From a virus: a DNA stretch of 64,000 nt. The notes below the pieces were generated by a model. The model did not search any database and had not been told where the DNA came from. It worked only from the letters and a program-made list of their open reading frames with translations. Position numbers and translations under genes: made by a program. Location of the stretch: IMG/VR virus record IMGVR_UViG_3300045988_166055, positions 64,001 to 128,000 of that record. One strand, 5' to 3'. How positions within the stretch are numbered: the first letter of the stretch is position 1; each line of letters opens with the position of its first letter. Below, piece after piece: positions 4,901 to 53,855 of this stretch.

Positions 4901-5385
4901 TTAAGGGCGGACAAGAACAAGCAAGAAAAGCAAAGAAAGAAGAAACCTTCTGGGATAAAGGTCTAGAATACTTCGATACATTCTCATTGAACTCAGACAG
5001 TCAAATGCAGAGTATGATAGACCTAACCACATCAGGAAACGATCTAATTTCTAAGATACTTGCGAAGAATACAGAGTTCAAACAAGCCTTTGATGATTAC
5101 TTCGTGAATCATATTCTATATAGTAAATCGTATGATCACGCAGCTGTAACAAAAATACAGAACGATGAGAAGTATAAATCTTCTGATGCTATTTATGCAC
5201 TTGCAGATGCACTAACAGCTGCAACAGACCTGACTGATCCTACATTGCAAACAAATGCAATACTGAGCCAGATTCTAATCGTTGTTCAGAGCATAATGCA
5301 GCAGAATAACACATCTGGTAGGCTTACACTTCCCGATGCAATCGCAGCAATGGCAACAGGTACATTTAATTATGAATCCACTTGA
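1945..5385 (+). CDS. tail tape measure protein
   Basis: 1146 aa; follows the chaperone pair; Ala/Gly-rich hydrophobic core (AAAGPAGIAIVAGMVAVELF) flanked by long helical segments. Confidence 0.8.
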   Translation: MADNNKQNKTSRFVSESQGLQDENQQQQNQNNQGNLNSVKDYLKSIDQTTKQILQKANGFSQSSARDQFGQKKGYFGDQYAQNAGSRKSGKKSYGSFSDGFEDAFWEGILGKDFKDQMASVVQGFAKDFGVSVQDLPGELGNQLGKVGMNAFKSTKLGKKVTGKLDNAKQKIFESASNAFQQGADKYGGKSAAGDAIKNLAGKFKGQSAVQTASGTSSILGKAGNIINSVFGSSQGAASAAGAGEAAATAAATMAEGAATAGTAAQAGATAMATMTSSAAAATSGIASMAAAAGPAGIAIVAGMVAVELFSEALGPAIEGAKKFGKALKDSAKRDQASEDRRAELAKDRLKQDVETIITQPFKILEEAAQKIYDAWDANLRTINQTQGYTKSDLQDLMASYAERLRQEGLAKYVSGSDITTNLTKVLESGLSGKVAEEFAYLATKLNAAIPTEDFFQYSSTYASLAANAIKNGKSETEAISYATSELENFASNLLYSSRQLAGGFSTGLKNASSLFEEAVKITTAAKQGDAGQLSSVLTAVSAVTGAIAPDLASSMTDAIVKAATGGNSSQIVALRSLAGINAGNTEFLKALVNNPQQVFSTLFTNLAKMQNMSNDNFMEVAEGLSDVFGVSMDAFARVDFNYLAKAITNMNTSNASLNENISNLQSGQSTTNADILRNQQVNQYMIENGLSLVMDNEAARAIQQHMWDEQRLQQLQETTYGVEIQGSALEFLAGIKNTIKNIMNILNPVRWLITTVSNVAQSTAEGNALKDDVAKVLALGKVGQGNAKSFYNLTTRGKELNLTPNLVQLLGGESSYYKAQAVGRTAYAIGDLTSAILSPGAYLSQLATQGIASFLLSRTDSKNPNKYGVGGKSSSYGPSSNYQWGTVGKSQGYGLKVKNTAMSVSSGSSTSSNEQSAEERNKQILQSNFDRMMNTIDSFVDQGKTYDEWAATARNFGISDYQKALNTLGYSEADLQGYFEAKEGVKGGQEQARKAKKEETFWDKGLEYFDTFSLNSDSQMQSMIDLTTSGNDLISKILAKNTEFKQAFDDYFVNHILYSKSYDHAAVTKIQNDEKYKSSDAIYALADALTAATDLTDPTLQTNAILSQILIVVQSIMQQNNTSGRLTLPDAIAAMATGTFNYEST

Positions 5386-5401
5386 TAGGAGAGTGCGATA
5401 A

Positions 5402-8071
5402 ATGAATTTCATAAGATTCTCAACAGGAACAACAAACATATTCCCATTAGCTAACTCTAAGACAGGCGGTCAGCTAATGACTGAATTCAACCTTCGTTCT
5501 AGAGAAAGTGTTGAAGTAGGCCCTATTCAGAGTAATAAGCGAATCCATTATATGGTTGGTCAGTCTTTTGTTAATTCAGAAGATGATTTTAAGCTGGTTG
5601 GAACTACAACAAGCTCTGGACAGATAGCTTCCGGTGACAGCCAAGTTCTAATGATAACAGAAGGTAGAGCTGTCATCAACGGTCACTACTTTGAATCACT
5701 TGTACCTGTAAAGATTGATATAGGTGAAGCAAATCAGAAGTTAAGAAAGAATTCTATGCAACCACTTCTAGGAGAGCTCTCTGTTGGTCTTCGTGCAATG
5801 TATAGCACAACAGAAACAATGGCCGGAGCCATGATTGCAGAAGAGAAAAACTACTTTGAAGGAGTTCAGGTAGTTATTCTGCCTAAATCAGAATTCAAAC
5901 TTCCTATTGACTGCAAAGATGATCAAGGGCAAGTTACAGCTCACATCAAGCTAGGTGACATCATTTATCAGAATGGTAGAATAACAAACATATCTCAGAA
6001 TTATCCTGATAAGTGTAGATATCTAGATGCTGATAGAATTACAAATATCAGTAAGCTCATGTCTGATAACTATATCAATCGAGATGGATTGAATCCGGGA
6101 TACATATACGGATTCTCTGGTAAGGGTTCATCAACAAAGGACACCTGGTGCAACATAACAGATAGCTTGATTGTATGGGATAAGAGTTACAACAAGGCTA
6201 CAACCGAAAAGCCTTCTGTAACTAATGCAAACTTCGGAACTGACACAAACGGAAATGTAGTTCTAGCTCTTCCTCATAAACAAATTGATGGGATGATGAA
6301 TACAGACGGTAAACAGCTTTACTATCAGCCCAGAATAATGAAGTTACCTAAAGCTGATTACTCATCTGGATCTTCCGGTACTGTTGATCATGCTTACACT
6401 CAGAAGATAAAAGATGCTTTTGAGAAGATCCATACAAAGATTCTAGAAGGAAAACAAAGAGCATACATTGATATTATAACTGATGAAAAACGAAAAGAGC
6501 TGCCCCCTATAAGTTCTAGCTGGAGCATTGGCGATTATGTAGTAGTAGGAACGGATAACTCAGTTGTTGCTTCTTCTGATTCAACCAAATCTCCTTCTAC
6601 ATTGTACATAATCATTGATGGAACTGTTACACAATTTAAGTTCAAAACAAGTAACAAGAATGGAGATGTTCCTTCTGGGCTTGATCTGCAGATAACCAAG
6701 TTTGAATGGTCGTCCGATAAGAATGATCCAATTCCGGAAACAGGTTCTTCTGATGAATCTGTAGAGAAGTACAACAATCAACTTCAAGTAGCTACAAGCA
6801 ACTACAGAGGAGCAATTGGCACATCTTACATCGTAATAAAATATGACCAGGTAGATAAGGATACACAAGCAGTAGATACAACATATTATTTCTACACCGT
6901 TTCAGCAAAGAATGCAGATAAGATGTATTCAGATCCTATTTGGTTAACTGGAGAAATCAATCTAGCAACAGAAGAATCAATTGGAGGGTTCTTAAATGTA
7001 CCTGACACGAAACTAGATGGTGGATATGTTTACAGAGACGAGAATGGTAATCTTAGACTGCTAGATTATGCTCTACTTCGTACAGGCACGCTCGCCTATC
7101 AGCTTGGCGCAGATCAAGAGTTCGGAAATGGGCTTACAACAGAGTCCATTCAAGAACAACTTGATGAATACGTAAACGATCGTGTAGCATTTCCTACTTC
7201 TGATACATTGAACGATAGTAAGTATAACGGTATGATAAATATCACCTTAGAGCTACCTAAAGAAGATGAAGCATCAATAGTTACTATTCGAAACATTGAC
7301 AGCAGATTCGGAACTGGTGTAAATATAAATCTTTCAGGTGAAGCAGATTCAAATACAATTATCAATATAGTAAATTGCGAGAAAATAAAGATAAATTCTA
7401 CATTAGCTCTTAGCAAGGATAAAGGTCCAGCTATAAATTTGTCTAATTGTAGTCTATGGTATGATTCAGAGGTAATTGAGAATCTAACATACATTTATGG
7501 ATTGAAGTTATGGTACAGACAGTTTGATGAATCCGATAACAACTTAACTGTTTCTGGTATGACTGTCATGTCTCTTGATTCAATATCGCAAACAAACGAC
7601 ATAGACTATTGGAATGAAGCGGTAGATAATGACATACATTATCTATACGCTCTTCAAAGTTTAACATTCAATACAGATGGAACTATCTTAGGAGCCGGAA
7701 TTCTATTAAAGAATAGAACTACTGGAAATGTGTCAAATGGTAAATCAATAATTGTTTCAAGTTTCCAATTACCAAACAACTCGTTACTACAGTATCCTAA
7801 GAATAGATTGACAAAGCAATTGAAGATAGATGGCCAATTCATTTCTGCTTATGCGTCGGATGAACCTGAAGGATATATAGTAATAGATACAAAATTCACA
7901 GCTTTATCACAGAAATGGAATACAAATGATGAGGATGTTGAGCCTGGAACAATTTCATTCCTCGCAAATGTCGAGCACATTACAAATGTTGTCGGTGTAA
8001 GCTATGGTACAGAGATTGATGGTTGGGCAACTGAATCCTTCCATCCTTTTGAAGGGAAGATAATCGGATGA
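5402..8071 (+). CDS. large tail-module structural protein, function unknown (889 aa)
   Basis: Long intact ORF, SD GGAGAG, beta-rich composition, position after tape measure. Confidence 0.55.
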   Translation: MNFIRFSTGTTNIFPLANSKTGGQLMTEFNLRSRESVEVGPIQSNKRIHYMVGQSFVNSEDDFKLVGTTTSSGQIASGDSQVLMITEGRAVINGHYFESLVPVKIDIGEANQKLRKNSMQPLLGELSVGLRAMYSTTETMAGAMIAEEKNYFEGVQVVILPKSEFKLPIDCKDDQGQVTAHIKLGDIIYQNGRITNISQNYPDKCRYLDADRITNISKLMSDNYINRDGLNPGYIYGFSGKGSSTKDTWCNITDSLIVWDKSYNKATTEKPSVTNANFGTDTNGNVVLALPHKQIDGMMNTDGKQLYYQPRIMKLPKADYSSGSSGTVDHAYTQKIKDAFEKIHTKILEGKQRAYIDIITDEKRKELPPISSSWSIGDYVVVGTDNSVVASSDSTKSPSTLYIIIDGTVTQFKFKTSNKNGDVPSGLDLQITKFEWSSDKNDPIPETGSSDESVEKYNNQLQVATSNYRGAIGTSYIVIKYDQVDKDTQAVDTTYYFYTVSAKNADKMYSDPIWLTGEINLATEESIGGFLNVPDTKLDGGYVYRDENGNLRLLDYALLRTGTLAYQLGADQEFGNGLTTESIQEQLDEYVNDRVAFPTSDTLNDSKYNGMINITLELPKEDEASIVTIRNIDSRFGTGVNINLSGEADSNTIINIVNCEKIKINSTLALSKDKGPAINLSNCSLWYDSEVIENLTYIYGLKLWYRQFDESDNNLTVSGMTVMSLDSISQTNDIDYWNEAVDNDIHYLYALQSLTFNTDGTILGAGILLKNRTTGNVSNGKSIIVSSFQLPNNSLLQYPKNRLTKQLKIDGQFISAYASDEPEGYIVIDTKFTALSQKWNTNDEDVEPGTISFLANVEHITNVVGVSYGTEIDGWATESFHPFEGKIIG

Positions 8072-10744: not shown

Positions 10745-12205
10745 TTGGCTAAACATTGTTTTTGCAACTTTTTTCTTGCAGGAGTGGCTATTACAGACTT
10801 TGGGCTTGTAATCCCTTCTCCATTTACATCATTATCATTAAGTAACAGCGAGATATCATCAATGACTCAATGGACTCTTGATTGCATTGTTGGAGGAGAT
10901 GACAAAAGAAGAATAAACATTTCAGCTTTTGAAGCTCTTCTATACACATCAGCACAGAATGCAAGCAACTATTCAAATTCATCTGGAATACCTGTTTCAT
11001 TCCTGTTCGGATGGTTAGATGAAAATGGGAGTGTATTAGAATCTCTTTCTTATCAAGGCTTTACATTAACCTTCAAAGTTTCCACATCTGGTAGATACAT
11101 GAAATATTCCATTACGGGTTATGCTTCGCTTGCTATACAAACAAGTTTACCTGTATTAAGAGTTCCAGAGCTTTCTGGGATAGTACAACCATCAGCAGTT
11201 GTTGAGGGGCTAGCAGTAGCAGTGAAAGCTACTAACTACTATGATCTAGATATTGATCATTGCGATCAACCTACACTCGTTAATCACGGAGCAATGACAA
11301 CATCATTCAATAGTTATGTTAGAGGAACCTATTCAGGAAAAGACGATTACGAAACGTTTCCAGGGTTACTTAAACTGTCAAAATCTTACAATGCTTCTAG
11401 AGATTCTGCAGGTCTTGATAGCTACAAAGTTAGAAAACTAAGTCAAGCTATCAACAACAGAAAAGTAAGTCCGCTTTCAAATTTCTTGAAAACAAGTTTT
11501 ACAGATACAAAGCCACAAAGTTCGTCTTTCTCTTATTGGGTAGACGAACCAACTATGACAATCAGAGGTTGTATACATTATAAGAGCAACGCAGGTCTCC
11601 TTGGCACATACACAAAAGATACTCTTGAGTATGGTACAGCTAACACAAATGTTCTTACATTGTCAGGTTCATACAATGGTGTCGCTTATAACATGACTGA
11701 TATGAACTATACACAAGTTGGGTTCAATGTTGATGGCAGCGGTAACACTATTGCTCAAGATTATCAAGTTGTCAATAGCTGGAGTAGTACACTTGCAGAT
11801 GTATTTCAATCTGCTAACATCATAAATGATGTGAATGCAATTGCTTCTCAATTCAGTGGAGACTTTACAGTAACTATTCCTGGTAGCACAAATAAGTACA
11901 ATATTGCTCAGCCTATATCCTTACTTGTAATGTCAGGGAACACAATATCTCCTATAACCGGAGTATACAACATAATTTCTGTATCACATGATATCAGTTC
12001 GACATTCGTTACAACATTAAAGCTCCAAAGACTTGTTATGAGCTCAGCTAATCAGGTTGCAGCTCAGCAAGGAATATTGATAAGAGGAAGTTCATCATAT
12101 CCTAAACTTTCGTACTCAAAAACAAAAAACATAGTATCTACTTCAAAAGTTGATTTCGGAACAATTTATCCTGACTTCACATATATGTCAGGGACATATA
12201 TCTAA
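10745..12205 (+). CDS. baseplate hub / late-control-D-like protein (XkdQ type)
   Basis: TTG start 8 nt after AAGGTGG; position between the LysM protein and the baseplate wedge genes. Confidence 0.45.
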   Translation: MAKHCFCNFFLAGVAITDFGLVIPSPFTSLSLSNSEISSMTQWTLDCIVGGDDKRRINISAFEALLYTSAQNASNYSNSSGIPVSFLFGWLDENGSVLESLSYQGFTLTFKVSTSGRYMKYSITGYASLAIQTSLPVLRVPELSGIVQPSAVVEGLAVAVKATNYYDLDIDHCDQPTLVNHGAMTTSFNSYVRGTYSGKDDYETFPGLLKLSKSYNASRDSAGLDSYKVRKLSQAINNRKVSPLSNFLKTSFTDTKPQSSSFSYWVDEPTMTIRGCIHYKSNAGLLGTYTKDTLEYGTANTNVLTLSGSYNGVAYNMTDMNYTQVGFNVDGSGNTIAQDYQVVNSWSSTLADVFQSANIINDVNAIASQFSGDFTVTIPGSTNKYNIAQPISLLVMSGNTISPITGVYNIISVSHDISSTFVTTLKLQRLVMSSANQVAAQQGILIRGSSSYPKLSYSKTKNIVSTSKVDFGTIYPDFTYMSGTYI

Positions 12206-12765
12206 TGGTGACAAAAATGAAAATACTGAACTGCATTCTTACAAACAATGATATAGAATATCCTGAAGTAGGAACAAAGTATGGATTTGGGAGAACCGAA
12301 GACGATATTCACACAGGAGTAAATATAAAGTGTAAAAATGTTTACTCTATATGCGACGGTGTTGTTATTGATTCGGCAAAGTATAAAAATGGATATCTGG
12401 TTTTGATTCAATATGACAATACAATTTGTTTGTTGTACAGTATGCTTCGAGAGTCGTTTGTTGTTCCTGGGCAACTTATCCGAAAGGGTACAATTTTAGG
12501 AACAACAGACGACTTTGTCCATTTTGAATATTTGAGAACAGATAAAAATCCTCTTAGTTTAACATTTATATATAAATCAATAGCACTACATCCTAACGAA
12601 CCTAAAGAAGTTCTTGACGGCTCATACAATTTCTATTCATCAATAGAGACAAGATACAGCAACTATTCTCTAGAAGGAGATTATTCTACTGAAATTATTA
12701 CAGATTTTAGCAAGCTTCCTCCTTCATTTTTGGCAGAAACTGCAAGCATGGGAGAGGGTGAGTAA
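12205..12765 (+). CDS. M23/LytM-like peptidase domain protein (possibly degenerate)
   Basis: IHTGVNI ... GYLVLIQYDN ... GTILGTTDDFVHFEY resembles the HxxxD ... HxH layout, with substitutions. Confidence 0.5.
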   Translation: MVTKMKILNCILTNNDIEYPEVGTKYGFGRTEDDIHTGVNIKCKNVYSICDGVVIDSAKYKNGYLVLIQYDNTICLLYSMLRESFVVPGQLIRKGTILGTTDDFVHFEYLRTDKNPLSLTFIYKSIALHPNEPKEVLDGSYNFYSSIETRYSNYSLEGDYSTEIITDFSKLPPSFLAETASMGEGE

Positions 12766-12767
12766 GG

Positions 12768-13973
12768 TTGCCTAGTTACTCAAATAGTAGTTTAGCTACA
12801 GTGAAGATACTAACAAAAAATTATGGAAGCAGAACAGATAGCAGATTCAATAATCCATCTGGAGTAATTGATCATATTGTTATTCACCACATGGCAGGTG
12901 TAATGTCTGCAGAAAGTTGTGGTAACTGGTTCAAATATGGTACCGATGGAGCATCCTCAAATTATGGAATAGGAAGAGATGGAGATATTGGACTATATGT
13001 AGAGGAAAAGAATAGGTCATGGGCAACATCGAGTGGAAAGATTGATTGCAGAGCAGTAACAATAGAAGTTTCAAATAGTGTTGCCGGTGGTGAATGGCCT
13101 GTAAGTGATGCGTCATATAAATCGCTGATAAAACTTGTTGCAGATATTTGCAAGAGAAACGGAATAAAACGATTGAACTATACAGGTGACAAATCTGGAA
13201 ACTTACATATGCACAAATGGTATGCTTCTACAGCCTGCCCTGGACCATATTTAGAAGCAAGATTTCCTGATATAGCTAATCAAGTAAATAATATTTTATC
13301 AAATCCTTCATATAATCCTACTAGGTCACCGTCGTCGGTAAACATAAGTATAGATTCAAGTATACCTGCTGATACAACAACTGCTTATGCTTTAGCTGTA
13401 AATGGAGGAATACTTCCATCACCTGAACAAATAGACCCATATGTAATAACAATAAATAGAAAAGTAAAATCAGTAGACTTCAAGAAGATAAAAGAACTTG
13501 GAGTAATAGGGGTAGTTGTTGAATTAGGTTTCCTATTTGATTCAACGCATTCAAAAGTTGAATTTAGAAATCCTAATTTAATAAATCAGATACATATGAT
13601 TCAGGACGAAAATCTTCTATACGGTATGTATTTCAACGGAAGAGCAAGAACATTACAAGAAGCTAAAGAAGAAATGTATGAAGTGTATCTTGCTGTAAAA
13701 TCATTTCATCCTAATTTAGGGTTCTGGGTAGTTCCGTCATTCACATTCAACAAAACAAAAAATGATGAAATACTAAAGTTATACAAAGAGACATTAGAAG
13801 AACTCGGACTTAAGGGTCAGATAGGTCTATACACTAAACGTGAAGAATTAAAGAAGATAGACTGGGAAAAGGATTCGGAAGATTGGTTGCTTTGGATTGA
13901 CGATCATATTGATGCTTTTAACAACATAACTGAACTTCTTACACCTATGTTCTTTGCATACAATAATCAATGA
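12768..13973 (+). CDS. virion-associated N-acetylmuramoyl-L-alanine amidase with GH25-like C-terminal half
   Basis: IVIHHMAG...NYGIGRDG...AVTIEVSN...TACPGPYL; N-terminal half is a paralogue of endolysin 33325-34563; TTG start supported by the shared MP.Y.NSSL N-terminus. Confidence 0.8.
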   Translation: MPSYSNSSLATVKILTKNYGSRTDSRFNNPSGVIDHIVIHHMAGVMSAESCGNWFKYGTDGASSNYGIGRDGDIGLYVEEKNRSWATSSGKIDCRAVTIEVSNSVAGGEWPVSDASYKSLIKLVADICKRNGIKRLNYTGDKSGNLHMHKWYASTACPGPYLEARFPDIANQVNNILSNPSYNPTRSPSSVNISIDSSIPADTTTAYALAVNGGILPSPEQIDPYVITINRKVKSVDFKKIKELGVIGVVVELGFLFDSTHSKVEFRNPNLINQIHMIQDENLLYGMYFNGRARTLQEAKEEMYEVYLAVKSFHPNLGFWVVPSFTFNKTKNDEILKLYKETLEELGLKGQIGLYTKREELKKIDWEKDSEDWLLWIDDHIDAFNNITELLTPMFFAYNNQ

Positions 13974-13984
13974 GGTGATTATTT

Positions 13985-15670
13985 ATGGCCTTCAAGCCTA
14001 GGACAACTGCACCGAATAAAGGGGACTACTATTGGTACGGAGGTAGCCCATTCTATCCTTCATATGGTATGCCAAACTGTACAACATATGCTTGGGGCAG
14101 GTTCTGGGAGATACTAGGAGAAAGACCTAAACTTTGTACAGGTAATGCCGGAACATGGTACAGCTACACTCAGGATGGATACAAAAGAGGAAGTAAACCT
14201 GCATTAGGCGCTGTAGCTTGTTGGGCAAAACCGGGAGCAGCCGGTCATGTAGCAATAGTCGAGAAAATAAACTCAGATGGTTCTATTGTTACTTCTGAAA
14301 GCGGTTGGAAATCGTCTACCTTTTGGTGGACATCCACAAGGTGGCCAAATAATTATGCAAATAACGCATACACATTTCAAGGATTTATATACAATCCGGC
14401 TGTAAGCTCATCATCTAATTCAGAAGATAATGTACTAGCAAAATTCTTACAAGCTGCTAGATCAAAGATAGGTCAAGATGGAACATGGGCATGGTCTACA
14501 TCTGGATTATCAAAACCTCAACCATGGTGTGCAGCATTTGTTGTAGCTTGTGCAAAAGCTGTAGGAGTATTAGGAAAAATAATTCCTACTGACTATGGTG
14601 CTGGAAGTTTATGTAGAACAGGCGTAGCAAACGGCTGGGGAAAGTTCTATACAGGTCCTTGGCATGGAACAAATTTCAAACCTCAGCCCGGTGACATGAT
14701 TGTATATAGATGGGACAGTAGGTCATCCTATTCAGGGCATGACAAATACTATTCAGATCATATAGGTATTGTAGAGTCATTTGACGGATCGGTTGTTCAT
14801 ACAATAGAAGGAAACTCGGGTCCTGGAGGAAGCAATGAAAAAAGAAAAGTTGTTACGCATAATTATGATTATACATATAGTTGTATAAACGGATACTACA
14901 GACCTGATTGGGAGAAAGTAGGAGGATTTGTTGGCGGGCTAGGCAGTGGATCATCAGGGTACATTGGTCCTCTATATGATTACCAAAACACAAAGCAAGA
15001 TTCAATAATAAGAGAGATAGGATACTTGAATTCCTCATCAGAACCTTCTATAAAAACATCTGATATTAAATTATCTGTAGTTAACTATACATCATTGTTC
15101 ACTGCAATGTATAATTCTGCTGCTTCTAGTGTTTTAGGTTCGTCAAGATACATTGTTTCTTCAGATTTAGATCTAAGCAATGTTGAATCTGTTGCAAGAG
15201 AGATAGTTAAGTTCTGTATGACGAAGGGTCTCCCATCTTCATCTGGCGTAGGAATTGTAGCTAATATATACGCGGAATGCTCATTGAATATATCGTTAGG
15301 GCCAATAATGGACAGTAACGGTCAGTATTCTGGTGGTATGTGTATGTGGAATGGAGATAACTGGAGAGCTTTCTTACAATTTGTTGGAAGTGATTGGAAG
15401 ACAGATTTATCAGGACAATGTGAATTTTTATTTCATTACATTGATCAAAACTATTCTTGGTACAAGAGTCTTGTAAAGCGGTACTACGGATCAAATCTTG
15501 GATTAGTTGAATATCTTTCTCAGCTTCCAAATACAGAAGAAGGCGCTAAGAAAGCTGCAGATGTCTTTGTAAGATGCTATGAAAGACCTGCAAACATGGA
15601 TTATCAATCTTCTAAGCGTCAAGGCTTTGCATCAGACTTCTGGAAGAAACTGACACCAATATTGAGGTAG
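13985..15670 (+). CDS. tail lysin: two CHAP/NlpC-P60-type domains plus a tail-lysozyme-like C-terminal domain
   Basis: NCTTYAWGR...GHVAIVE; WCAAFV...DHIGIVE...TIEGNSG; C-terminal GIVANIYAECS...GGMCMWNG...YERPA. Confidence 0.8.
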   Translation: MAFKPRTTAPNKGDYYWYGGSPFYPSYGMPNCTTYAWGRFWEILGERPKLCTGNAGTWYSYTQDGYKRGSKPALGAVACWAKPGAAGHVAIVEKINSDGSIVTSESGWKSSTFWWTSTRWPNNYANNAYTFQGFIYNPAVSSSSNSEDNVLAKFLQAARSKIGQDGTWAWSTSGLSKPQPWCAAFVVACAKAVGVLGKIIPTDYGAGSLCRTGVANGWGKFYTGPWHGTNFKPQPGDMIVYRWDSRSSYSGHDKYYSDHIGIVESFDGSVVHTIEGNSGPGGSNEKRKVVTHNYDYTYSCINGYYRPDWEKVGGFVGGLGSGSSGYIGPLYDYQNTKQDSIIREIGYLNSSSEPSIKTSDIKLSVVNYTSLFTAMYNSAASSVLGSSRYIVSSDLDLSNVESVAREIVKFCMTKGLPSSSGVGIVANIYAECSLNISLGPIMDSNGQYSGGMCMWNGDNWRAFLQFVGSDWKTDLSGQCEFLFHYIDQNYSWYKSLVKRYYGSNLGLVEYLSQLPNTEEGAKKAADVFVRCYERPANMDYQSSKRQGFASDFWKKLTPILR

Positions 15671-15988: not shown

Positions 15989-16426
15989 ATGTATACAAAT
16001 TCATTAGCTTGGCCGTCAATGTTTGATGTTGCTAGAAACAAAGTTTCTGTTATAGAAGATAATCAATCAGTTGTAAATAGGTCAAAGCTCTTAATATTAA
16101 CTGATCCAACTGAGTTATATATGAATCCAAATTTTGGAGTAGGATTGAAAAAGTACTTATGGCAGTACAACACAGCCAATCAGAAAGAAAGAATAAAAGA
16201 CGATATAGTTTCTCAACTTAGATTACATGAACCGTGTTCAATTCCTGAAGAAACTCAGATTTCAGAAGGCCTCTTGTTTACAGGAACATCTGATGTAGAA
16301 ACAACAAAAGATACTCAGCAGTCACTGAAGATGACTTTAGCAATAAAAACAACATATGGATCTACACTAAATATTGATACAGCTGATTTGCAATCAATAG
16401 TAGATTATTTCAATTCGTTGACATGA
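15989..16426 (+). CDS. baseplate wedge protein, gp25/gpW-like
   Basis: LILTDPTELYMNPNFGVGLKKYLWQ matches the gp25-type motif; gene order. Confidence 0.65.
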   Translation: MYTNSLAWPSMFDVARNKVSVIEDNQSVVNRSKLLILTDPTELYMNPNFGVGLKKYLWQYNTANQKERIKDDIVSQLRLHEPCSIPEETQISEGLLFTGTSDVETTKDTQQSLKMTLAIKTTYGSTLNIDTADLQSIVDYFNSLT

Positions 16427-16444: not shown

Positions 16445-18328
16445 ATGGCGGAAAATGGGCTCATAAGTTACACATCAAGAGATTATAATTCTCTTGTAAA
16501 TGAATTTTGGTCTTTGGTTCCAAAACTAACAGAACTTTGGAAACCCGAAGCTGATGCGGATCCAGGTGTTGTGCTTGGAAAGTATCTCGCTTCTGTTGCT
16601 GATATGCTTGGTGTCAATCTAGACTTTATGGCGAATGAAGTATTTGCTCCTTCAGTTTCTCAACGAAAAAACGCTGAGAAACTTTTCAGTTTGATTGGAT
16701 ATGAATTAGGATTCTATACAGCTGCAAGAACAGAAGTAACTTTCACAAATACTTCTAATGAAACAATGACAATTGATTTTGGATTCAACGGAAGTAACTT
16801 CTGCACTCTTAACGCTTATACAGATATTACAAATCAATCTAGAGTAATAACATACAATATTCTCCCTCTTACAAATAAGTATGGTACAAAGGAAACAAGA
16901 AGTCAGCGAACTGTACTTACTGAAAATATAAATGTGTTTGTTGATTCAGATATTGTTCATCTTGATCCAGGCGAAAGCTGCACAAGAGTAGCAATAGAGG
17001 GAGAGCTTCGTAGTTATAGTGTTTCGGTAGAAAAAATAAAGTCAAGTAACTACATAATAAAGCTTCCGTCGCAGCACATTGATACAACAGCTATTTGGGT
17101 GAAAGCAAAGACAAGCCAAAATGCAGATGATTTCTTGTCTACTCAGTGGATTCAATGCAACAGCCCTGCAGAATTTATTCAGCCTGAACCTAGATTCTCA
17201 GTAACATATGATAATTATTCAAATGCACAGATTCAATTCTCAAACTATCTTAACCAGCTTGAGAACTATGATAAAAACTGGATAACTATTTATTGGATTG
17301 ACTGCTCAGGTGTAATTGGATGCGTAGGTGAAAATGTTTTACAAGATTTCATGCCTGCAAAATCTGGGCAATATATTGATAGCGACTCAGGTGAATTTTC
17401 TATATCAAACTTATCAAATACTGTTGAGCTGCCTCATAGCTATACAGTAACAGGTAAGAGCCCTGAGACAGCTCGTGAAGCGTATTTCAACAGCAGAAAC
17501 TATATCAATACCTTTGACAGCTTAGTAACACTTCCCGACTTCAACAGATTTCTTAATAGAGAACCTGGAGTAGACTGCGGAGTTGTAATTGACTGTCAGA
17601 AAGCGCTTGAAATAAATCTTGCTATATACAATGATAAGAATCTAACAGATTCACAGAAGTCTAAGATGTATCTAACAAAGTATGATTTCCCTGAAGGAGA
17701 TCCAACACTTGATTGGAATTCAGTACTTGGGCTTGGGTTTGATCCATCTGATCCAAACAAGTTTGTATTTGCAACAAACTTCAAGAGGTACACAGCAATG
17801 TGCTTTGCAATACATAATGATTTCTTATCGAGTAATTACGGTTCAGGGCAGATGAATAACTCTCAGATAAAGAGGAAGACAAACTTCATTCAGTATAAAC
17901 CGCCTATTCAGTTCATTGATAATGTTGTAAGAGATTACAAACCGCTGCAAGCAATGACAGTTGATCTTCAGTTTGGCTGGTTAAGAATATTTAACTTCTA
18001 TATTGTTGGAACAATAACACCTAAGAAGTCTCTTGACAAGGATACAGCAGCTGTTATCATCAACAAGGTCAAAGAGAACCTTGCAATTTACTTCTCTCCA
18101 GCAAATAGAAATATCGGAGTCAAACCTACACTAATGGAAATTATAGATGTAGTTGAAAATAGCGATTCTAGAATAAGACATTTTGATCCAGGCAGTGCAA
18201 AGACATTGGGCATTGTTTGGTCTGATTGTGACATTGAATATTTTAACTACATCAGCTTTGCTAGATATACACCAGATGTAGCATCAGCAATGGCAATAAG
18301 GATAAATCCTGAGTATCTAAGTAATTAA
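16445..18328 (+). CDS. baseplate J-like protein
   Basis: N-terminal YTSRDYNSLVNEF...DADPGVVLGKYLASVADMLGVNLDF typical of the J family; size; order after the W-like gene. Confidence 0.7.
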   Translation: MAENGLISYTSRDYNSLVNEFWSLVPKLTELWKPEADADPGVVLGKYLASVADMLGVNLDFMANEVFAPSVSQRKNAEKLFSLIGYELGFYTAARTEVTFTNTSNETMTIDFGFNGSNFCTLNAYTDITNQSRVITYNILPLTNKYGTKETRSQRTVLTENINVFVDSDIVHLDPGESCTRVAIEGELRSYSVSVEKIKSSNYIIKLPSQHIDTTAIWVKAKTSQNADDFLSTQWIQCNSPAEFIQPEPRFSVTYDNYSNAQIQFSNYLNQLENYDKNWITIYWIDCSGVIGCVGENVLQDFMPAKSGQYIDSDSGEFSISNLSNTVELPHSYTVTGKSPETAREAYFNSRNYINTFDSLVTLPDFNRFLNREPGVDCGVVIDCQKALEINLAIYNDKNLTDSQKSKMYLTKYDFPEGDPTLDWNSVLGLGFDPSDPNKFVFATNFKRYTAMCFAIHNDFLSSNYGSGQMNNSQIKRKTNFIQYKPPIQFIDNVVRDYKPLQAMTVDLQFGWLRIFNFYIVGTITPKKSLDKDTAAVIINKVKENLAIYFSPANRNIGVKPTLMEIIDVVENSDSRIRHFDPGSAKTLGIVWSDCDIEYFNYISFARYTPDVASAMAIRINPEYLSN

Positions 18329-18342: not shown

Positions 18343-19461
18343 ATGGACATGAAAAATGTTTCTGTCCCCGAAGTTTATAAGTCCAGTCAGGACTTCAGAT
18401 TCTTCCTAGATTGGTTTGAAAAAGCACTAGGTCAGATAAAGTATGACACAGAAAATCTAATTGACTGCTTTGATCCACTAAGATGCAAAGAGGATCTCTT
18501 GTGGTTACTTGGTGACACCATAGGATTCAAATATGATGATAGATTATCAGCAGCATATAACCGTCTTGTTATGCTCTATTTCATGTCTATGATAAAGAAC
18601 AAGGGATCTAAAGATGGAGTAACATTAGCTGCGGAAGTCAATCTTGCACAATTTAGTGTAATAAATTACGGGAAAGAAAAGGACATTCTTCAAAACAGAC
18701 TGGAAGATACTTCTATTCCTGTAAATGCTGTTTATGTATCTAGCGATGTAGAAAATGGGTTCATTGATATAGTTTATTTTACATCAAACGATGTTCCAAT
18801 TGACGCTTGTATAGAGTATGTAAGGCCATTAGGTATGTACTGCTTCCAGCATTCAGGTGTTAGGTTCGACGGAAGAACAAAAATATCAATTGATGCAAGA
18901 CTTACAAATGAGAATGAGAAAAGTAAACTTTCTAACTTTGTTACTCATGTAGGACATTACAGTAGAAATGATTATGCAAGAATGCAGAAGATGAAAAACG
19001 AATATCTTCACGAAGTTAACAAAGACGATAAAAGAAGGTACGCATGGTACCGAAATTCTGATGTTGAAGATAGACCAGATGAAGAAATTGATCCAGGGTA
19101 CAGATCTCTTTATTCGCTTCAGATGGCCAACAACGAACACATAGTTAAGTCACTGCTTGAACCTATATTTGGTCTAGGTAAGGAACCGCTCAAGGTAGAA
19201 ACTACTGTACCTGATAATTATGTTATAAGTAATGATGAGCCTCCTTACAATCTAAGATATGATAAAGATAAAGAAGAATCAGTTTCAAAGGATATTTATA
19301 CAATTGATCAAGATCGATCTGAAAATATCCTCAATCCTCGTCCTGCTGTAAGCCCTATAATGTCCGAGCTAGGTTCAGCAGTTTTCTTAGACGATGGAAA
19401 GACATATCTTGTTAGGGATGAAAATGGAAACATAATTAAGAAAACACTTCCAGAAGAATGA
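18343..19461 (+). CDS. baseplate/tail protein, gpI/XkdU-like position
   Basis: Follows the J-like gene; 372 aa. Confidence 0.45.
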   Translation: MDMKNVSVPEVYKSSQDFRFFLDWFEKALGQIKYDTENLIDCFDPLRCKEDLLWLLGDTIGFKYDDRLSAAYNRLVMLYFMSMIKNKGSKDGVTLAAEVNLAQFSVINYGKEKDILQNRLEDTSIPVNAVYVSSDVENGFIDIVYFTSNDVPIDACIEYVRPLGMYCFQHSGVRFDGRTKISIDARLTNENEKSKLSNFVTHVGHYSRNDYARMQKMKNEYLHEVNKDDKRRYAWYRNSDVEDRPDEEIDPGYRSLYSLQMANNEHIVKSLLEPIFGLGKEPLKVETTVPDNYVISNDEPPYNLRYDKDKEESVSKDIYTIDQDRSENILNPRPAVSPIMSELGSAVFLDDGKTYLVRDENGNIIKKTLPEE

Positions 19462-19462
19462 T

Positions 19463-19483
19463 GAGAACCTTGTATCTTTATGA
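19463..19483 (+). promoter_or_regulatory. class B box
   Basis: GAGAACCTTGTATCTTTATGA; 15-nt identity (ATGAGAACCTTGTAT) with the box at 42231-42245. Confidence 0.5.
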
Positions 19484-19495
19484 ATCTTAAAGGAT

Positions 19496-19750
19496 GTGAT
19501 TTCATTGGCTGAAGATATCAAACGGATGGGAAATGGTCCGTGGAAGGAAGCTTCAGATGAAGATGTAGCTAAAGACGAAAAAGGATTTACAATGCCAAAT
19601 CTTCACAGAAGATTAGATCCTCAACAGCCTACGTCTTTATATGAAGTAGCTCCCAGAGAATATCAAATAGGTGTATACGAAAAAGATTCATACAGAACAA
19701 CAACAATAAATACTCATGATGAAGAATCTGAGTATGATGAGATTCCATAA
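19496..19750 (+). CDS. hypothetical protein (84 aa)
   Basis: GTG start after AAAGGA; start uncertain. Confidence 0.4.
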   Translation: MISLAEDIKRMGNGPWKEASDEDVAKDEKGFTMPNLHRRLDPQQPTSLYEVAPREYQIGVYEKDSYRTTTINTHDEESEYDEIP

Positions 19751-19762
19751 GGAGATGATTAC

Positions 19763-20965
19763 TTGGATCAGCTTAAGAAAGTTGCAAAACAAATACCTAT
19801 AAGACACAATGTATCTATCCGAGTAATTGATCCTACTTCCGGAAATGTTGTATCCGAGCATACAGGTCACAATGCTGCAACTAATTCATTAGTTACCGGA
19901 ATTGCTCACTACTTAAAGGGCGACGGTGTCCTTAACCAAGGGTATCATATGCTAAGTTCGTATGTCCCAATGTACATATCATTAGGTACAATGGGATTGA
20001 TAAATCAAGAATCAGATTCTGAAGGGCTTCCGTCAGGTCTAGGAGTTATAAGCTATAAAGATAAGTATCCAAATGATCCAGATCTAGAGGAAGCAAACAG
20101 ATTTGTTGATTATCTAACACAGACTCCTGGATACGGTGCAGACGGATACGACCCAAATGAAAATAATGGTCGAGAATATCTAGGTCTAGGTCCTGTGTTC
20201 GAAAAAAGAGTGCATAAAGAAATAAAACAAGAAATCCTACAGATTGGTGATATAAACTTTGATGGTAAAGTAGACTATCAAGATGTTATGCTACTAGTTG
20301 ATTACAATTGCGGTGTTAAACAGCTTTCTGAAAAGCAACTTTTCGTTGCTCAAGCAGACGAAAACGGATCTGTATCTTGTGAAACTGTTCAGAAGGTAAA
20401 AGATTGTGCAGAAGGAAAGATACTTCCATCCGAACTAGGTACAGCTATTTATCAGCCTAAGAGTGCTCCAACAGTAAATTGCGAGCTTATATCTGAATCA
20501 TTTCCAAGAGCTAAAATTGCATTCAGAGATATTGTACCTGAAACGGAAGCAGAATTTCCTCAAACAGTTGATGTTGTGTATAGTGCAATGATATCTACAG
20601 GAGCACTTTCGCAATTTAGAGAAACAGATAAGGATTATATCTACATTACAGAGGCTGGTCTTTGGTCTAAGCCTGATTGGTCAGACGGAGGCGACAACGG
20701 ATTGCTTGCCGGTTACAGAATATCTCCTCCTAACTCTAACAATTGGAAGATGGCTGAATGGGATACACAGAGACATGTTTATTTTGATTCACCAGAATGC
20801 AAAGAAAACAGACGAATTCTAAAACAAAATATAATCAAAGTTAAACGAAATCAAATAGTACAAGTTGTGTGGAAGATACAGATAGGCGGAATGGATCAGC
20901 TTGGAGGAATAATGAGCCTGTACCCGCACTACTCACCGACTCTTAAATGGATAAATTGGGAATAA
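19763..20965 (+). CDS. tail fibre / receptor-binding candidate with an internal dockerin-like module
   Basis: TTG start 8 nt after AAGGAG; last large gene of the baseplate module; GDINFDGKVDYQDVMLLVDY matches a dockerin Ca-binding repeat. Confidence 0.55.
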   Translation: MDQLKKVAKQIPIRHNVSIRVIDPTSGNVVSEHTGHNAATNSLVTGIAHYLKGDGVLNQGYHMLSSYVPMYISLGTMGLINQESDSEGLPSGLGVISYKDKYPNDPDLEEANRFVDYLTQTPGYGADGYDPNENNGREYLGLGPVFEKRVHKEIKQEILQIGDINFDGKVDYQDVMLLVDYNCGVKQLSEKQLFVAQADENGSVSCETVQKVKDCAEGKILPSELGTAIYQPKSAPTVNCELISESFPRAKIAFRDIVPETEAEFPQTVDVVYSAMISTGALSQFRETDKDYIYITEAGLWSKPDWSDGGDNGLLAGYRISPPNSNNWKMAEWDTQRHVYFDSPECKENRRILKQNIIKVKRNQIVQVVWKIQIGGMDQLGGIMSLYPHYSPTLKWINWE

Positions 20966-20977
20966 GGAGTGATAGAT

Positions 20978-21355
20978 TTGAAGAAGGTAATACATGCTGC
21001 TGAAGAAGAATACAGTCAGATTCTATTTACTCCTTCATCTCTAGTTGATTTCTTAACTCAAGTAGACGAGCTTAAAGATGTCAACATAGGCGTAAATGAT
21101 GACGGAGAAAATGTTTCAATCTCTATCGGGGATTCAACATATCAAATAAATCCTAAGTCAGTTACAAATATTGATGTATCTGATGATGATCTAGATCAAG
21201 CTTGTCAAGCGAACGAAAGTAATTATGACGAGCTTGAAGAGTCAGGTTCAATTGAAGTGAATGATTCAGTTGAATCGGGAATCATAAAACAGCTATTAAA
21301 GACCTTAGCAATAGGCGGAATAGTACGTTTAGCTGCTAAGGAATTGAAAAATTGA
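20978..21355 (+). CDS. acidic hypothetical protein
   Basis: TAAGGAG SD; TTG 20978 has better spacing than GTG 20969; acidic, with an amphipathic C-terminus. Confidence 0.5.
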   Translation: MKKVIHAAEEEYSQILFTPSSLVDFLTQVDELKDVNIGVNDDGENVSISIGDSTYQINPKSVTNIDVSDDDLDQACQANESNYDELEESGSIEVNDSVESGIIKQLLKTLAIGGIVRLAAKELKN

Positions 21356-21366
21356 GGTATTGGAAT

Positions 21367-22752
21367 ATGAAAGATACTAGAAAGAAGATTGTATCTGATA
21401 TAGAATCAGAAAAGCCCAAGAACCCTGTCATTGGAATATTTGAAGGTGAGTGTGCTGATTCAAACATAACAAATGAGAATGGACTAGATATAACTAGACC
21501 TGTATGGGAAAACATATTTAGTTCTGAATCGTATCAGCAAGCTATTGAACTTGGATGGTACATAGGATTCCTAGGACATCCCGATGATCCTGGATGTATG
21601 GACTTCCGAAATGCTTGTATTGTAATGACAGAAGGACATATAGATGATAACGGAAAAGTATATGGTAAATTTAATCTGATTGATACTCCTGTTGGTAGGA
21701 CAGTTAAAACATTCATAGACGCAGGTGTAACATTCGGAATTTCTGTAAGAGGCGCAGGGGACATTGTAAACAATTCTGTTGATCCTGATACATTTGTATT
21801 TAGAGGATTTGACCTTGTATCGTTTCCTGCGTTTCCTGAAAGCATCCCTACTTTTACATCGATTGCAGCTTCTAGCGATGTAGAGTCCCAGAAGAAGTAT
21901 AAAGCAATTTGTGCAGCAGTTAAAGAGAATCTACCTAACATTGATAGCTGCGAAGCTATTGATATTCTACAGTGTCAGTTTGCTGAACAGTCTGATGAAT
22001 ATAAAGCTTTAGAAGACAGAAAGAAAGAAATAAAAGGATGTAATTTAACTGACGATGATTTAAGTGAATGCGATGATGTAGACATTACAAAAGATAAAGT
22101 AGAGTCAATGACAAAACTTTATCTAGAACAGGTAGAAGCAAACAATCATCTGAAGAAAGAAAATCAAATTCTTTCAAGTAAATTAGCTTCAAACGAAATT
22201 GAAGCAAGACGAAAGATTTCTTCTATTAGTAGAATAACAGCAGATCAGATAAAATGTGCAACAGATGCAAAGGATGCTGCAGAGAAAAGATGCAAGCAAT
22301 TAGTTGCAGCGTCAATCAGAATGAAAGAGACGATTTCGCAAGAAAGATCAAACAACCTTAAATATCTACAGAAGATAAGCGAAAGCAAGAATATTGTTGA
22401 TTCTAAGGATTCTTTAATTTCTTCTCTAAAAACCAGACTCAATGAAACCGTCAATGCTTCTGCTAATGTAGAGAGAAGAACTTCAAACCTTGACGAACAG
22501 TTAAAGCGATCCAAGGCTGAAATAGTAGCTTGCAAAAAGATGCTTAAAGATTATCAGGATGCTTATGCAGAACTGTATTCGCAAGCAGTTGGAGCTGATC
22601 TTCAGAAGGTTAAAGTAACTGAATCAACAAGTGTAGCTTCACTTCGTTCTGCTATTACAAGCTCAATAAGTAGAAAACCATCCTCTATTAGAGAGCCTGA
22701 AGAAATTGATGTAGATGATTGTTACTTTGACGATGACATGGTAACTATTTAA
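21367..22752 (+). CDS. prohead protease / scaffold-like protein
   Basis: Sits directly upstream of the capsid gene; globular N-terminus (FLGHPDDP...GISVRGAGD), long coiled-coil C-terminal half. Confidence 0.45.
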   Translation: MKDTRKKIVSDIESEKPKNPVIGIFEGECADSNITNENGLDITRPVWENIFSSESYQQAIELGWYIGFLGHPDDPGCMDFRNACIVMTEGHIDDNGKVYGKFNLIDTPVGRTVKTFIDAGVTFGISVRGAGDIVNNSVDPDTFVFRGFDLVSFPAFPESIPTFTSIAASSDVESQKKYKAICAAVKENLPNIDSCEAIDILQCQFAEQSDEYKALEDRKKEIKGCNLTDDDLSECDDVDITKDKVESMTKLYLEQVEANNHLKKENQILSSKLASNEIEARRKISSISRITADQIKCATDAKDAAEKRCKQLVAASIRMKETISQERSNNLKYLQKISESKNIVDSKDSLISSLKTRLNETVNASANVERRTSNLDEQLKRSKAEIVACKKMLKDYQDAYAELYSQAVGADLQKVKVTESTSVASLRSAITSSISRKPSSIREPEEIDVDDCYFDDDMVTI

Positions 22753-22783
22753 TTACAAATTTTATATAGGAGAGTGTTTCAAT

Positions 22784-24151
22784 ATGATCACTAAGCGTTC
22801 CACTGCTCCTGCCCGCAGACCTGTCACTGCCGGTCAGAGCATTACTTCTGGCGTTCGTAATCGTAACGCTTCCGCTATTAAGTCCTCAGTAAATCTTACT
22901 CCGTCACAGAGAATGTTCGCTAATCAGATCGCTCGTAACTGTAGAAAGCCTGGCGCTATCATGGCAGCTACAAATACATCAAACATCATGGCTCGTCCCG
23001 ACTTCCTGGACCTGCTGCCTGTGTTTGTTCAGAAGCTGATTGTAACTGACATCTTCGGTTCCGTTGCGATGCGTTCTCGTCAGCAGCTGGTTCCTTACTT
23101 CAAGTTCATTGCTGAGAACACTAAGGGAGAGACCAAGTCTGGTACCGTTATGTCTTCTCCGTTTGCTAACCGCCAGGGCGTTGATCCTAACTTTACTGGT
23201 CGGGTAGTAAAGAACGAAGAGGTTGACGGTCAGCTGATGTATACTCCTGTTCTGCCTGGCACTGTTACCATTAAGAGCGCTCAGGGAGTATTCGTTGATA
23301 AGGGTGACGGCAAGCTGTACAAAGCCGATACTCAGGAAGAATCAGGAACCATTGATTATGCTACCGGCGAGATTGGCACCCTGACAGGTGACATGACTGC
23401 TACCTACCAGTACGACAATGAGACTGTTGGTCCTGACACCAATGGCCAGTACGGTGCTAAGATGGGTAAGGGTTACCTGCAGCTTGATGAGTTCAATCTG
23501 GTCGCTGAGGCCAAGGAGCTCGCTTGCTACTGGAGTATCTATTCTGCATTTGCTGCTCAGCAAGAATATGGTTCCAACATCGCTGACATGGCCAAGGAGG
23601 CCGCTGTTGGTGAGATCACTGCTGAAATCAACACCTCTTGCCTGGATATGCTGATGCAAGCAGCTTCTTACAAGCCTGCTTTCAACTGGGATGCTTCTCC
23701 TGTTCTGTCTGGTGCAGTTGTTCCTTCTGATTACCTGAACATGTTCAAGCTGAAGCTGGGTCAGGCTGCTGCTTCTATCTACCAGCAGACTCGCATGACT
23801 CGCCCGAACCGTCTAGTGGTAGGTACTACCGCAGCTGAGTACATCGGCATGATCAACGGCTTCAAGGGTGACAACATCGATGACACTGTTGGTCCTTACA
23901 AGTTCGGTACTCTTGACCAGTTCGAGATATATGTCAATCCTTCTTACGATCCTGATTCTTGGGTCATGTGCTGCAAGAGTAACGACATTAGAAAGAACAC
24001 GGCTCTGTTCGGCGAGTATATGCCTATCACCAACACTGATGTGGTTGGTCTGGCTAACATGTCCGCGCAGCAAGGCTATGCCACAATGTACGCAAGCAAG
24101 GTCGTCAACCCTGCCACTTGCGTGAAGGGCAAGATCCTAGGCACTTTCTAA
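22784..24151 (+). CDS. major capsid protein (candidate)
   Basis: 455 aa; strong SD TAGGAGAG; marked shift to CTG/AAG/GGT/CGT codons (high-expression style); strong terminator downstream; follows the scaffold-like gene. Confidence 0.65.
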   Translation: MITKRSTAPARRPVTAGQSITSGVRNRNASAIKSSVNLTPSQRMFANQIARNCRKPGAIMAATNTSNIMARPDFLDLLPVFVQKLIVTDIFGSVAMRSRQQLVPYFKFIAENTKGETKSGTVMSSPFANRQGVDPNFTGRVVKNEEVDGQLMYTPVLPGTVTIKSAQGVFVDKGDGKLYKADTQEESGTIDYATGEIGTLTGDMTATYQYDNETVGPDTNGQYGAKMGKGYLQLDEFNLVAEAKELACYWSIYSAFAAQQEYGSNIADMAKEAAVGEITAEINTSCLDMLMQAASYKPAFNWDASPVLSGAVVPSDYLNMFKLKLGQAAASIYQQTRMTRPNRLVVGTTAAEYIGMINGFKGDNIDDTVGPYKFGTLDQFEIYVNPSYDPDSWVMCCKSNDIRKNTALFGEYMPITNTDVVGLANMSAQQGYATMYASKVVNPATCVKGKILGTF

Positions 24152-51341: not shown

Positions 51342-51528
51342 GACCATATTTCTTCCTGACGGAAGCATAAGGTATACAAATAGCTGTTCAAATAAATTGT
51401 ACACAAGTTATGCTGATGCTAAAGTAAATGAGGAAGAAATGAAGCAAATAGATAATAGGCTGAGGAGAAAATCCTCAGCCAATATCTATATAAATAAAAC
51501 GTTTGTAAAGAAAACAAGAGGTGTATGA
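51334..51528 (+). CDS. hypothetical protein (64 aa)
   Basis: Overlapping starts and stops on both sides. Confidence 0.45.
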   Translation: MIETIFLPDGSIRYTNSCSNKLYTSYADAKVNEEEMKQIDNRLRRKSSANIYINKTFVKKTRGV

Positions 51529-53193: not shown

Positions 53194-53268
53194 TGGGGCG
53201 TAGCCAAGCGGAAAGGCAGTAGACTTTGACTCTATTATTCGCTGGTTCGAATCCAGCCGTCCCAGCCA
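53194..53268 (+). tRNA. tRNA-Gln (anticodon UUG)
   Basis: Acceptor TGGGGCG/CGTCCCA, loop CT-TTG-AC, T arm GCTGG-TTCGAAT-CCAGC, encoded G-CCA. Confidence 0.85.
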
Positions 53269-53469
53269 GTGGTCAATTAGCTATTGACTGATGTCAGAGT
53301 AATCAGCTAACCTGACAAAGAATGAAAATGATCGCTGAAAACTGCTACTAAAGGATTCGTCCTCATTATTCACCTTAAGATAGTGGCTAGTTATTTGTGG
53401 ATTACTAGTTGATGATGATTAGCGTGACAATCTAAGCGGTAAGCTGATGAATAGTTAGGAGGAACATAA

Positions 53470-53853: not shown

Positions 53854-53855
53854 AT

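Follow-up and report, generated by a model that had tools for sequence, protein, structure and literature searches.

Dockerins are the calcium-dependent modules by which Ruminococcus and Clostridium assemble their cellulosomes. Type I dockerins (PF00404), exemplified by those of C. thermocellum Xyn10B (1OHZ/2CCL) and Clo1313_0689 (8X39/8X3A), are built from two repeats of ~22 residues, each comprising a 12-residue EF-hand-like loop of the pattern D-x-N-x-D-G-x-x-D-x-x-D followed by a helix, and adopt a three-helix fold. A module sharing these features is encoded in a 64,000-nucleotide stretch of viral DNA (IMG/VR record IMGVR_UViG_3300045988_166055, positions 64,001 to 128,000; hereafter the window). 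Unlike the cellulosomal dockerin, which is terminal in a secreted enzyme, the phage module is inserted within the chain of a structural protein of 400 amino acids (aa). It is 24-33% identical to solved dockerins, and departs from them in the degenerate second loop of the window copy and in conserved cysteines at aa 183, 206 and 215. The insertion lies in a hypervariable loop of a widespread, conserved phage scaffold protein. The reading of its function that we favor, at a probability of roughly 0.45, is that it would serve as a virion adhesion module binding cohesins on the host surface.

The architecture of the scaffold family recalls that of modular phage receptor-binding proteins and tail fibers, in which a conserved anchor likewise carries exchangeable binding modules, among them CBM-like (CBM, carbohydrate-binding module) and Ig-like ones; T4 gp34-type and Milano gp124-type fibers have an N-terminal subdomain that is CBM5/12-like. 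Inserts of the family that resemble carbohydrate-binding modules (CBM) of families 5/12 are similar to those of the solved fibers 9rkv_M, 8fqc_P1, 9x3r_M and 9f4a_Le, and the scaffold gene, like those of modular fibers, is located at the variable end of the baseplate block. Unlike modular fibers, the scaffold has no detectable solved relative, and exchange takes place at an internal loop as well as at the C terminus.

The bare observation of a dockerin in such a protein is already on record via GenBank/UniProt auto-annotation. A protein from a human-metagenome virus catalogue (DAF92094.1 / A0A8S5UCJ3, "dockerin type 1 [Siphoviridae sp. ctgN495]") differs from the window protein by 2 mismatches in 400 residues (99.5% identity); its name is an automatic annotation only, for which no analysis of architecture, context or function was found, and a few other phage proteins in BFVD bear the same automatic name. 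A search of the literature found no paper analyzing a dockerin on a phage tail protein or fiber. The nearest report describes dockerin domains on a viral contig associated with anaerobic methanotrophic archaea (ANME), for which a role in cell-surface adhesion was proposed (ISME J 2026, PMC13452462); that contig differs in its archaeal hosts, its NosD-like and S-layer gene context and its lack of a baseplate scaffold. A paper on an E. coli phage (PMC5967307) was set aside, as it concerns a CBM template and not a dockerin. What is new here is that the dockerin is a loop insertion, that this loop swaps modules among relatives, that the scaffold family bears adhesin extensions, and that there is a link to a cellulosome-producing Ruminococcus.

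A dockerin inserted in a scaffold loop

Residues 162-219 of the protein constitute a genuine two-repeat, type-I-like dockerin. Searched alone against Pfam Dockerin_1, the window protein scores only 17.5 bits (E 0.0049; gathering score 22.9), matching profile positions 2-45 with aa 162-205, that is, the first repeat and the linker; about 0.3 matches this strong would be expected by chance among the ~66 open reading frames (ORFs) of the window. The score falls below the Pfam cut-off because the second calcium loop has decayed. Although the window copy alone is therefore marginal, its identity is settled by its aligned relatives: Dockerin_1 matches all 18 members of a first alignment (A1; E up to 0.01, best E 1.8e-12), while EF-hand families match fewer members, and more weakly. 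At E up to 1e-3 there are 1085 homologues of the window protein; a precomputed PF00404 match accompanies nearly all of the ones listed. By homology, the window copy belongs to a group of dockerin-bearing orthologues, within which it is eroded. Searched against sequences of the PDB, the A1 profile retrieves the C. thermocellum Clo1313_0689 double dockerin (8x3a) at 6e-16, Xyn10B (2ccl_B) at 2.3e-7 and R. bromii Amy16 at 7.7e-7; solved dockerins span 6e-16 to 1e-4, whereas EF-hand proteins come in at 4e-3 or weaker.

Structure prediction tells the same story. In both AlphaFold models, the predicted local distance difference test (pLDDT) score is 86-98 over aa ~155-230. Foldseek searches of the PDB returned dockerins as all of the top 22 matches in a first search and as 13 of the top 16 in a second, with target-normalized template modeling (TM) scores of 0.68-0.84 and root-mean-square deviations of 2.5-3.6 Å over ~62 residues. 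In the model, helices at 172-182 and 206-216 are connected via a short linker helix (190-195), and the repeats are spaced by 34 residues (D163 to Q197), inside the usual ~32-36. A generic EF-hand reading was rejected, given that dockerin scores and fold matches are clearly higher than those of EF-hand families. The preliminary description of this DNA, drawn from its letters and ORFs, had claimed a two-repeat dockerin of the usual spacing, and that claim is borne out by the 18 matching relatives, the solved dockerins and the fold searches. As to the checks it proposed, a Pfam search leaves the window copy alone below the cut-off but captures all of its aligned relatives, and prediction of the protein alone yields a confident model whose three-helix fold superposes on solved dockerins. 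It missed that the second calcium site of the window copy is probably impaired.

The protein surrounding the dockerin came into view through distant relatives. In a first AlphaFold2 run on 18 close homologues, only the dockerin folded, the remainder staying below a pLDDT of 50. With a deeper alignment (A2), to which 33 distant scaffold representatives had been added, the whole protein was modeled at pLDDT 85.8 and a predicted TM score of 0.81, as a globular scaffold in which the dockerin is flanked by strands 157-160 and 227-230. A profile search of 1.84 billion representative sequences with purpose-built hidden Markov models (HMMs) of the N-domain (aa 1-150) and the C-domain (aa 232-400) located both scaffold parts in ~75 clusters at 50% identity, in proteins of 260-2700 aa. 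Most of the ~75 representatives have merely a loop of 5-12 residues between an invariant GLGP and an equally invariant NCELIS, and alignment of the junctions places the dockerin in exactly this loop. The preliminary description had spoken of a dockerin inside a putative tail fiber. The module is there, but inserted in a loop that varies on an otherwise conserved scaffold, and not in a fiber shaft.

The same loop accommodates other modules. A large group of relatives carries in it a Y-x-G-D-x-V-x-Y-x-G-x-x-Y...W module, a profile of which (A4) matches the CBM12 of a Vibrio chitin-oligosaccharide deacetylase (7e-6) and the chitin-binding domain of chitinase A1 (1e-4), and, among solved phage fibers, 9rkv_M (1.2e-4), 8fqc_P1 (2e-3) and T4-type gp34 (~0.03-0.05). 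Seven proteins give sub-threshold Pfam CBM_5_12 matches at this site. The C-terminal extensions of many relatives, in turn, match BspA-type LRR_5 (1e-63 and 3.6e-98), DUF285 (to 2.5e-62), SpaA and Big_2, and one such extension matches phrog_32409, "tail fiber protein," at 5e-41. Separately, Cys-rich inserts of the form CPxCG...C.C.CC, possibly zinc-binding, were seen in P0147, P0180, P0183, P0202, P0234 and P0243, in the loop equivalent to aa 147-238 of the window protein. In a neighbor-joining tree built on scaffold columns, without bootstrap, the dockerin-bearing sequences cluster together. Because two dockerin-less proteins, P0136 and P0138, nest within this group, the tree points to a single gain of the dockerin followed by losses or recombination. 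As a side observation, many of the metagenomic proteins P0208-P0284 consist of 3 to 30 tandem dockerin modules and reach 2796 aa.

The scaffold itself has few recognizable kin. It matches no Pfam or PHROG family, and its profiles retrieve only dockerins or CBMs from the PDB sequences, apart from the designed WD40 proteins Ika8 and Tako8; these were rejected as spurious, being sums of repeats that are each insignificant (independent E ~18 or worse). Likewise, tblastn searches with the window protein and the minimal scaffold P0199 found nothing in 50,697 cultured-phage records. In BFVD, the scaffold shows low-TM similarity (probability 0.98-1.0) to N-terminal parts of annotated tail fibers, and also, again at low TM, to small uncharacterized phage proteins.

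Calcium loops and sequence variation

The two calcium loops of the module have fared differently, as seen by comparing 50 unique dockerin segments of the family. Loop 1 of the window copy is fully canonical, with ligands D1, N3, D5, D9 and D12 in addition to G6. Across the 50 segments, D1, D5, G6 and D12 are constant save for one sequence each at positions 5 and 6, the exception at position 5 being an N; position 3 is restricted to N, D or T, and position 9 to D, N, T or S. Loop 2 follows a family consensus of DVNQDGxIDCxD, with ligands D-N-D-D/N-D in most of the family and D at both positions 1 and 12 in 35 of the segments. In the window copy this loop reads Q-A-D-E-N-G-S-V-S-C-E-T, which retains G6 and presents Q, D, N, S and T at positions 1, 3, 5, 9 and 12. 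In the 12 of the 50 that make up the subclade of the window, position 1 is Q, N or C, position 9 is S and position 12 is T or M; three further segments have N at position 1 and retain D at 12. The second calcium site of the window copy is thus probably weakened, which may be a sign of decay or of selection on a contact surface.

Variation among close strains is unevenly spread as well. Of the 11 dockerin positions that differ among variants sharing more than 96% identity with the window protein, seven lie in aa 201-209; the sole change in loop 1 is V170I. Within repeat 1, positions 10 and 11 (aa 172 and 173) have the second and fourth highest entropy in the module, while the calcium ligands of loop 1 are essentially fixed. 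These are the cohesin-contact, recognition-type positions in type I dockerins. Their variability fits a shifting specificity, and equally fits simple solvent exposure. The cysteines of the module (aa 183, 206 and 215; window 20309-20407) are widely kept, C206 in 35 and C215 in 37 of the 50 segments. Cysteines of this kind are unusual in cellulosomal dockerins. A disulfide within the module was considered, and no conclusion was drawn, as Cys183, Cys206 and Cys215 lack clean co-variation.

Probable baseplate position and host, and candidate ligand

The scaffold gene closes a recognizable tail block. Reading 5' to 3', a gene for a tape-measure-like protein of 1146 aa is followed by those for a gp25-like protein, M23, Amidase_2 and CHAP with Phage_lysozyme2 proteins, and a second gp25-like protein; then come the gp6-like, 372-aa and 84-aa genes, the scaffold gene, and the genes for a 128-aa acidic protein, a prohead protease and a gp23-type capsid protein. 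This order recurs in twelve related loci (L001-L012) wherever their upstream sequence reaches, and in the window and L001-L011 the scaffold gene sits at the distal end of the baseplate block, much as the preliminary description had it in calling this the last gene of a baseplate/fiber block. The gp6-like protein is 60-72% identical in L001-L011 (L012 starts too late to include its gene). Where extra genes are present, they fall between the scaffold gene and the 128-aa/protease pair. Because such genes insert 3' of it, the scaffold gene is the variable last gene of the tail block, and extra genes or paralogues just downstream are typical of receptor-binding loci. From the gene order and the fusion partners, we infer that the scaffold is located on the baseplate.

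Only one relative of this lineage has a known host. A scan covering a single genome for each GTDB species yielded eight loci, seven of which are contigs of metagenome-assembled genomes, five of them 127-145 kb long, assigned to Clostridia/Oscillospiraceae or Bacteroidales; such binning is weak evidence of a host. The eighth lies within the complete chromosome of Ruminococcus callidus ATCC 27760 (NZ_CP186925.1, 1,474,792-1,496,209; L008), and may represent an unusually large prophage. It is syntenic with the window (gp6-like protein 60%, capsid 61%, 372-aa protein 53% and protease 47% identical) and about as close to it as the dockerin-bearing L001. At L008 10001-12531 it encodes two tandem scaffold paralogues (325 and 512 aa) and, after them, an additional ORF of 465 aa. 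The genes for RecU, a SleB-like protein and CHAP/M23/amidase lysins also point to a Gram-positive host. R. callidus has 76 dockerin-fused enzymes and, as revealed by structure-based detection, an elaborate, cell-anchored cellulosome, whose cohesins are many and highly divergent in sequence, ruminococcal cohesins being often missed by sequence methods (PMC13463774). The suggestion, made at the outset, that the dockerin is a clue to the host is upheld by this syntenic relative inside a cellulosome producer. A literature search for an R. callidus prophage found nothing relevant, and the bacterial proteins whose dockerins are most similar gave no further clue, as none of 10 clusters carries a name.

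A scheme can be proposed from these observations, in which we infer the virion location, the copies per baseplate, the cohesin ligand and the host of the dockerin clade. A clade of contractile-tailed gut phages with genomes of ~140-147 kb would have acquired the dockerin once, in a surface loop of the conserved globular scaffold whose gene closes the baseplate block. Most likely anchored at the baseplate periphery, this protein would be a carrier of host-binding modules: in related phages, CBM5/12-like modules in the equivalent loop or long C-terminal extensions of adhesin type, and in the clade of the window, the dockerin. Since the module displayed is a dockerin, its most likely ligands would be the scaffoldin cohesins that a Ruminococcus-type host displays at its surface, bound with calcium, and multiple copies per baseplate could supply the avidity for a reversible first step of adsorption. 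The closely spaced termini of the dockerin would suit insertion in a loop, and its cohesin-binding face (helices 1 and 3) would, to judge from solved complexes, stay free. In the subclade of the window, any binding retained would proceed mainly via repeat 1, in a single mode, because site 2 is degenerate. The more specific proposal, that a populous clade of human-gut phages plugs a baseplate dockerin into vacant cohesins of the host cellulosome or amylosome and so uses them as its receptor, is more tentative than the general one of adhesion to cohesins.

A number of observations weigh against cohesin-mediated adhesion. The window copy scores under the Pfam cut-off, its loop 2 is devoid of acidic residues at positions 1 and 12, and the variability of that loop among strains more than 96% identical could be decay and not adaptation. 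The nesting of P0136 and P0138 implies that the module is dispensable. Both scaffold paralogues of R. callidus, the sole relative with a known host, lack a dockerin, and three of the eight genome loci lie on contigs binned with Bacteroidales. The scaffold has no solved or characterized homologue, and its proposed place in the virion is based on gene order and on what it is joined to. Finally, dockerin-like modules also occur in organisms without cohesins.

What else could the module do? Conceivably, the dockerin fold has been co-opted, either for a ligand other than cohesin, such as a cell-wall protein or a glycan, or as a mere calcium-dependent stabilizing knob. Sister clades display carbohydrate-binding-like modules in the same loop, which speaks for a general ligand-display site over one specific to cohesins; the conserved cysteines set the module apart, no cohesin partner was detected in the window, and many dockerin-like modules are found outside cellulosomes. 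Such co-option is nonetheless unlikely, as genuine, cohesin-binding type I dockerins are the nearest relatives in both sequence and fold, and the phage lineage is linked to a cellulosome-producing genus (PMC13463774). A further thought is that, in the subclade of the window, the module is the decaying remnant of an ancestral gain that now binds nothing and is tolerated in a permissive loop. Loss of the acidic ligands at positions 1 and 12 of loop 2 in this subclade alone, the concentration of strain variation in aa 201-209, the sub-threshold Pfam score and at least two losses of the module within the clade are all congruent with decay. Against it, loop 1 and the hydrophobic core are strictly conserved, no frameshifts or deletions occur across 235 cluster members and 1085 homologues, and the predicted fold is intact at pLDDT 93-98; moreover, single-mode dockerins that rely on one helix exist. 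A remnant is distinctly unlikely.

Docking of a phage-encoded, cohesin-bearing accessory (an enzyme or an extra fiber) onto the virion, raised as an alternative in the preliminary description, would be a conceptually normal use of a dockerin. No cohesin was found in the window by Pfam in 17 structural proteins (E up to 0.01-1), by a PDB sequence search of 13 structural proteins without an assignment, or, among the matches listed, in the 25 families of the other 41 ORFs, a negative that is weak in that it covers 64 of ~147 kb and divergent cohesins often evade HMMs (PMC13463774). The neighboring genes, in addition, are common to dockerin-less relatives, which leaves no clade-specific partner nearby, and accessory docking is on balance improbable. 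Least plausible, and only barely so, is that the scaffold decorates the head or neck, its dockerin tethering free virions to cellulosome-coated plant particles with no part in infection. The scaffold gene does adjoin the head block, the protein is globular and not fibrous, and no characterized homologue fixes its location. However, when extra genes intervene it is the 128-aa protein that stays with the protease and not the scaffold gene (the 128-aa homologue, found in eight of the twelve loci, is there always directly upstream of the protease, even in L008, L009 and L012, which have extra genes), relatives carry a tail-fiber PHROG domain, and the similarities in BFVD are to N-terminal parts of tail fibers.

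Should adhesion to host-surface cohesins hold true, it would define a new class of phage-receptor interaction, one that is protein-protein, calcium-dependent, and addressed with a domain taken from the assembly kit of the host itself. Fiber-degrading Ruminococcus are keystone members of the human gut whose phages are almost undescribed. Phage predation would then select on Ruminococcus that display scaffoldins, tying phage pressure to the evolution of cellulosomes, and could help explain the extreme divergence of ruminococcal cohesin sequences. The dockerin would also be a determinant of host range open to direct testing, since cohesin arrays and solved R. callidus cohesins exist. Whatever its ligand, a loop that tolerates dockerin, CBM-like and Cys-rich inserts is a candidate site for engineering host range, and would, if the proposal is right, be a natural plug-and-display site for retargeting phages.

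Coordinates and further features of the window

The window is a single, strand-uniform part of a large phage genome (~36-40% GC) and contains no second copy of either the dockerin or the scaffold (features in Table 1). The peptides quoted in the preliminary description are found in the plus-strand ORF that encodes the scaffold; its interval for the module, 20245-20418, does run from I161/G162 to K219, but is offset by one base from the codon frame. The gene starts with TTG, a start that homologues share at the same alignment position.

Table 1. Positions, in window coordinates, of the dockerin-bearing scaffold gene, its parts and its neighbors
Feature	Position	Strand	Basis or remark
gp25-like baseplate wedge gene	15989..16426	+	GPW_gp25 E 1.3e-6 among A3 ORFs; L001 homologue annotated GPW_gp25 (weak)
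gp6-like baseplate wedge gene	16445..18328	+	phrog_219 baseplate wedge subunit, E 3.4e-8
372-aa and 84-aa genes, putative baseplate components	18343..19750	+	Conserved order in L001-L011; L012 has the 84-aa gene only
Shine-Dalgarno sequence AAGGAG, 8 nt 5' of the TTG	19749..19754	+	Read in the sequence
Dockerin-bearing scaffold gene, 400 aa	19763..20965	+	ORF list, 1085 homologues; putative baseplate-distal adhesin or short fiber
Scaffold N half, aa 1-150, ending with the invariant PGYGADGYD...GLGP motif	19763..20212	+	N-domain HMM, invariant columns
Inserted module: strand 157-160, dockerin, strand 227-230; replaces the short loop of most relatives	20231..20452	+	Junction alignment, secondary structure of the model
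Dockerin repeat 1, D163-G184: canonical calcium loop DINFDGKVDYQD and helix 1	20249..20314	+	
Dockerin repeat 2, Q197-G218: degenerate calcium loop QADENGSVSCET and helix 3	20351..20416	+	
Scaffold C half, aa 232-400, beginning NCELIS..FPR	20456..20962	+	C-domain HMM, invariant columns
Start of head block: 128-aa acidic protein, prohead protease, gp23-type major capsid protein	20969..24151	+	Peptidase_S77 1.2e-6, phrog_207 2.2e-27, Gp23 4e-21

The 372-aa and 84-aa proteins match no family in Pfam, PHROG or PDB sequence searches, and the same is true of the products of the 1146- and 889-aa genes at 1945-8071, the former of which has a membrane-like core rich in Ala and Gly, as is typical of tape-measure proteins. 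Within the baseplate block, at 12205-15670, three cell-wall hydrolase genes follow one another (M23, Amidase_2, and CHAP with Phage_lysozyme2), and suggest a thick Gram-positive wall to breach; a further Amidase_2 and a SleB-like Hydrolase_2 are encoded elsewhere in the window. Families recognized among the ORFs at 24278-63275 include UvrD-type and SNF2 helicases, an NAD-dependent ligase, RecU, an SMC/RecF-like ATPase, a sigma-70 region 2 protein and a GIY-YIG/NUMOD3 homing endonuclease. A metabolic gene, for a full-length serine hydroxymethyltransferase, is found at 51525-52772 (Pfam SHMT 3.6e-137; E 6e-118 to the E. coli and Bacillus SHMT structures). Finally, 17 tRNA genes cluster on the plus strand at 53194-60749; the one at 54041-54115 has an abnormal anticodon call, and the tRNA-Ile(tat) gene at 58628-58722, at 95 nt, may hold an insertion.

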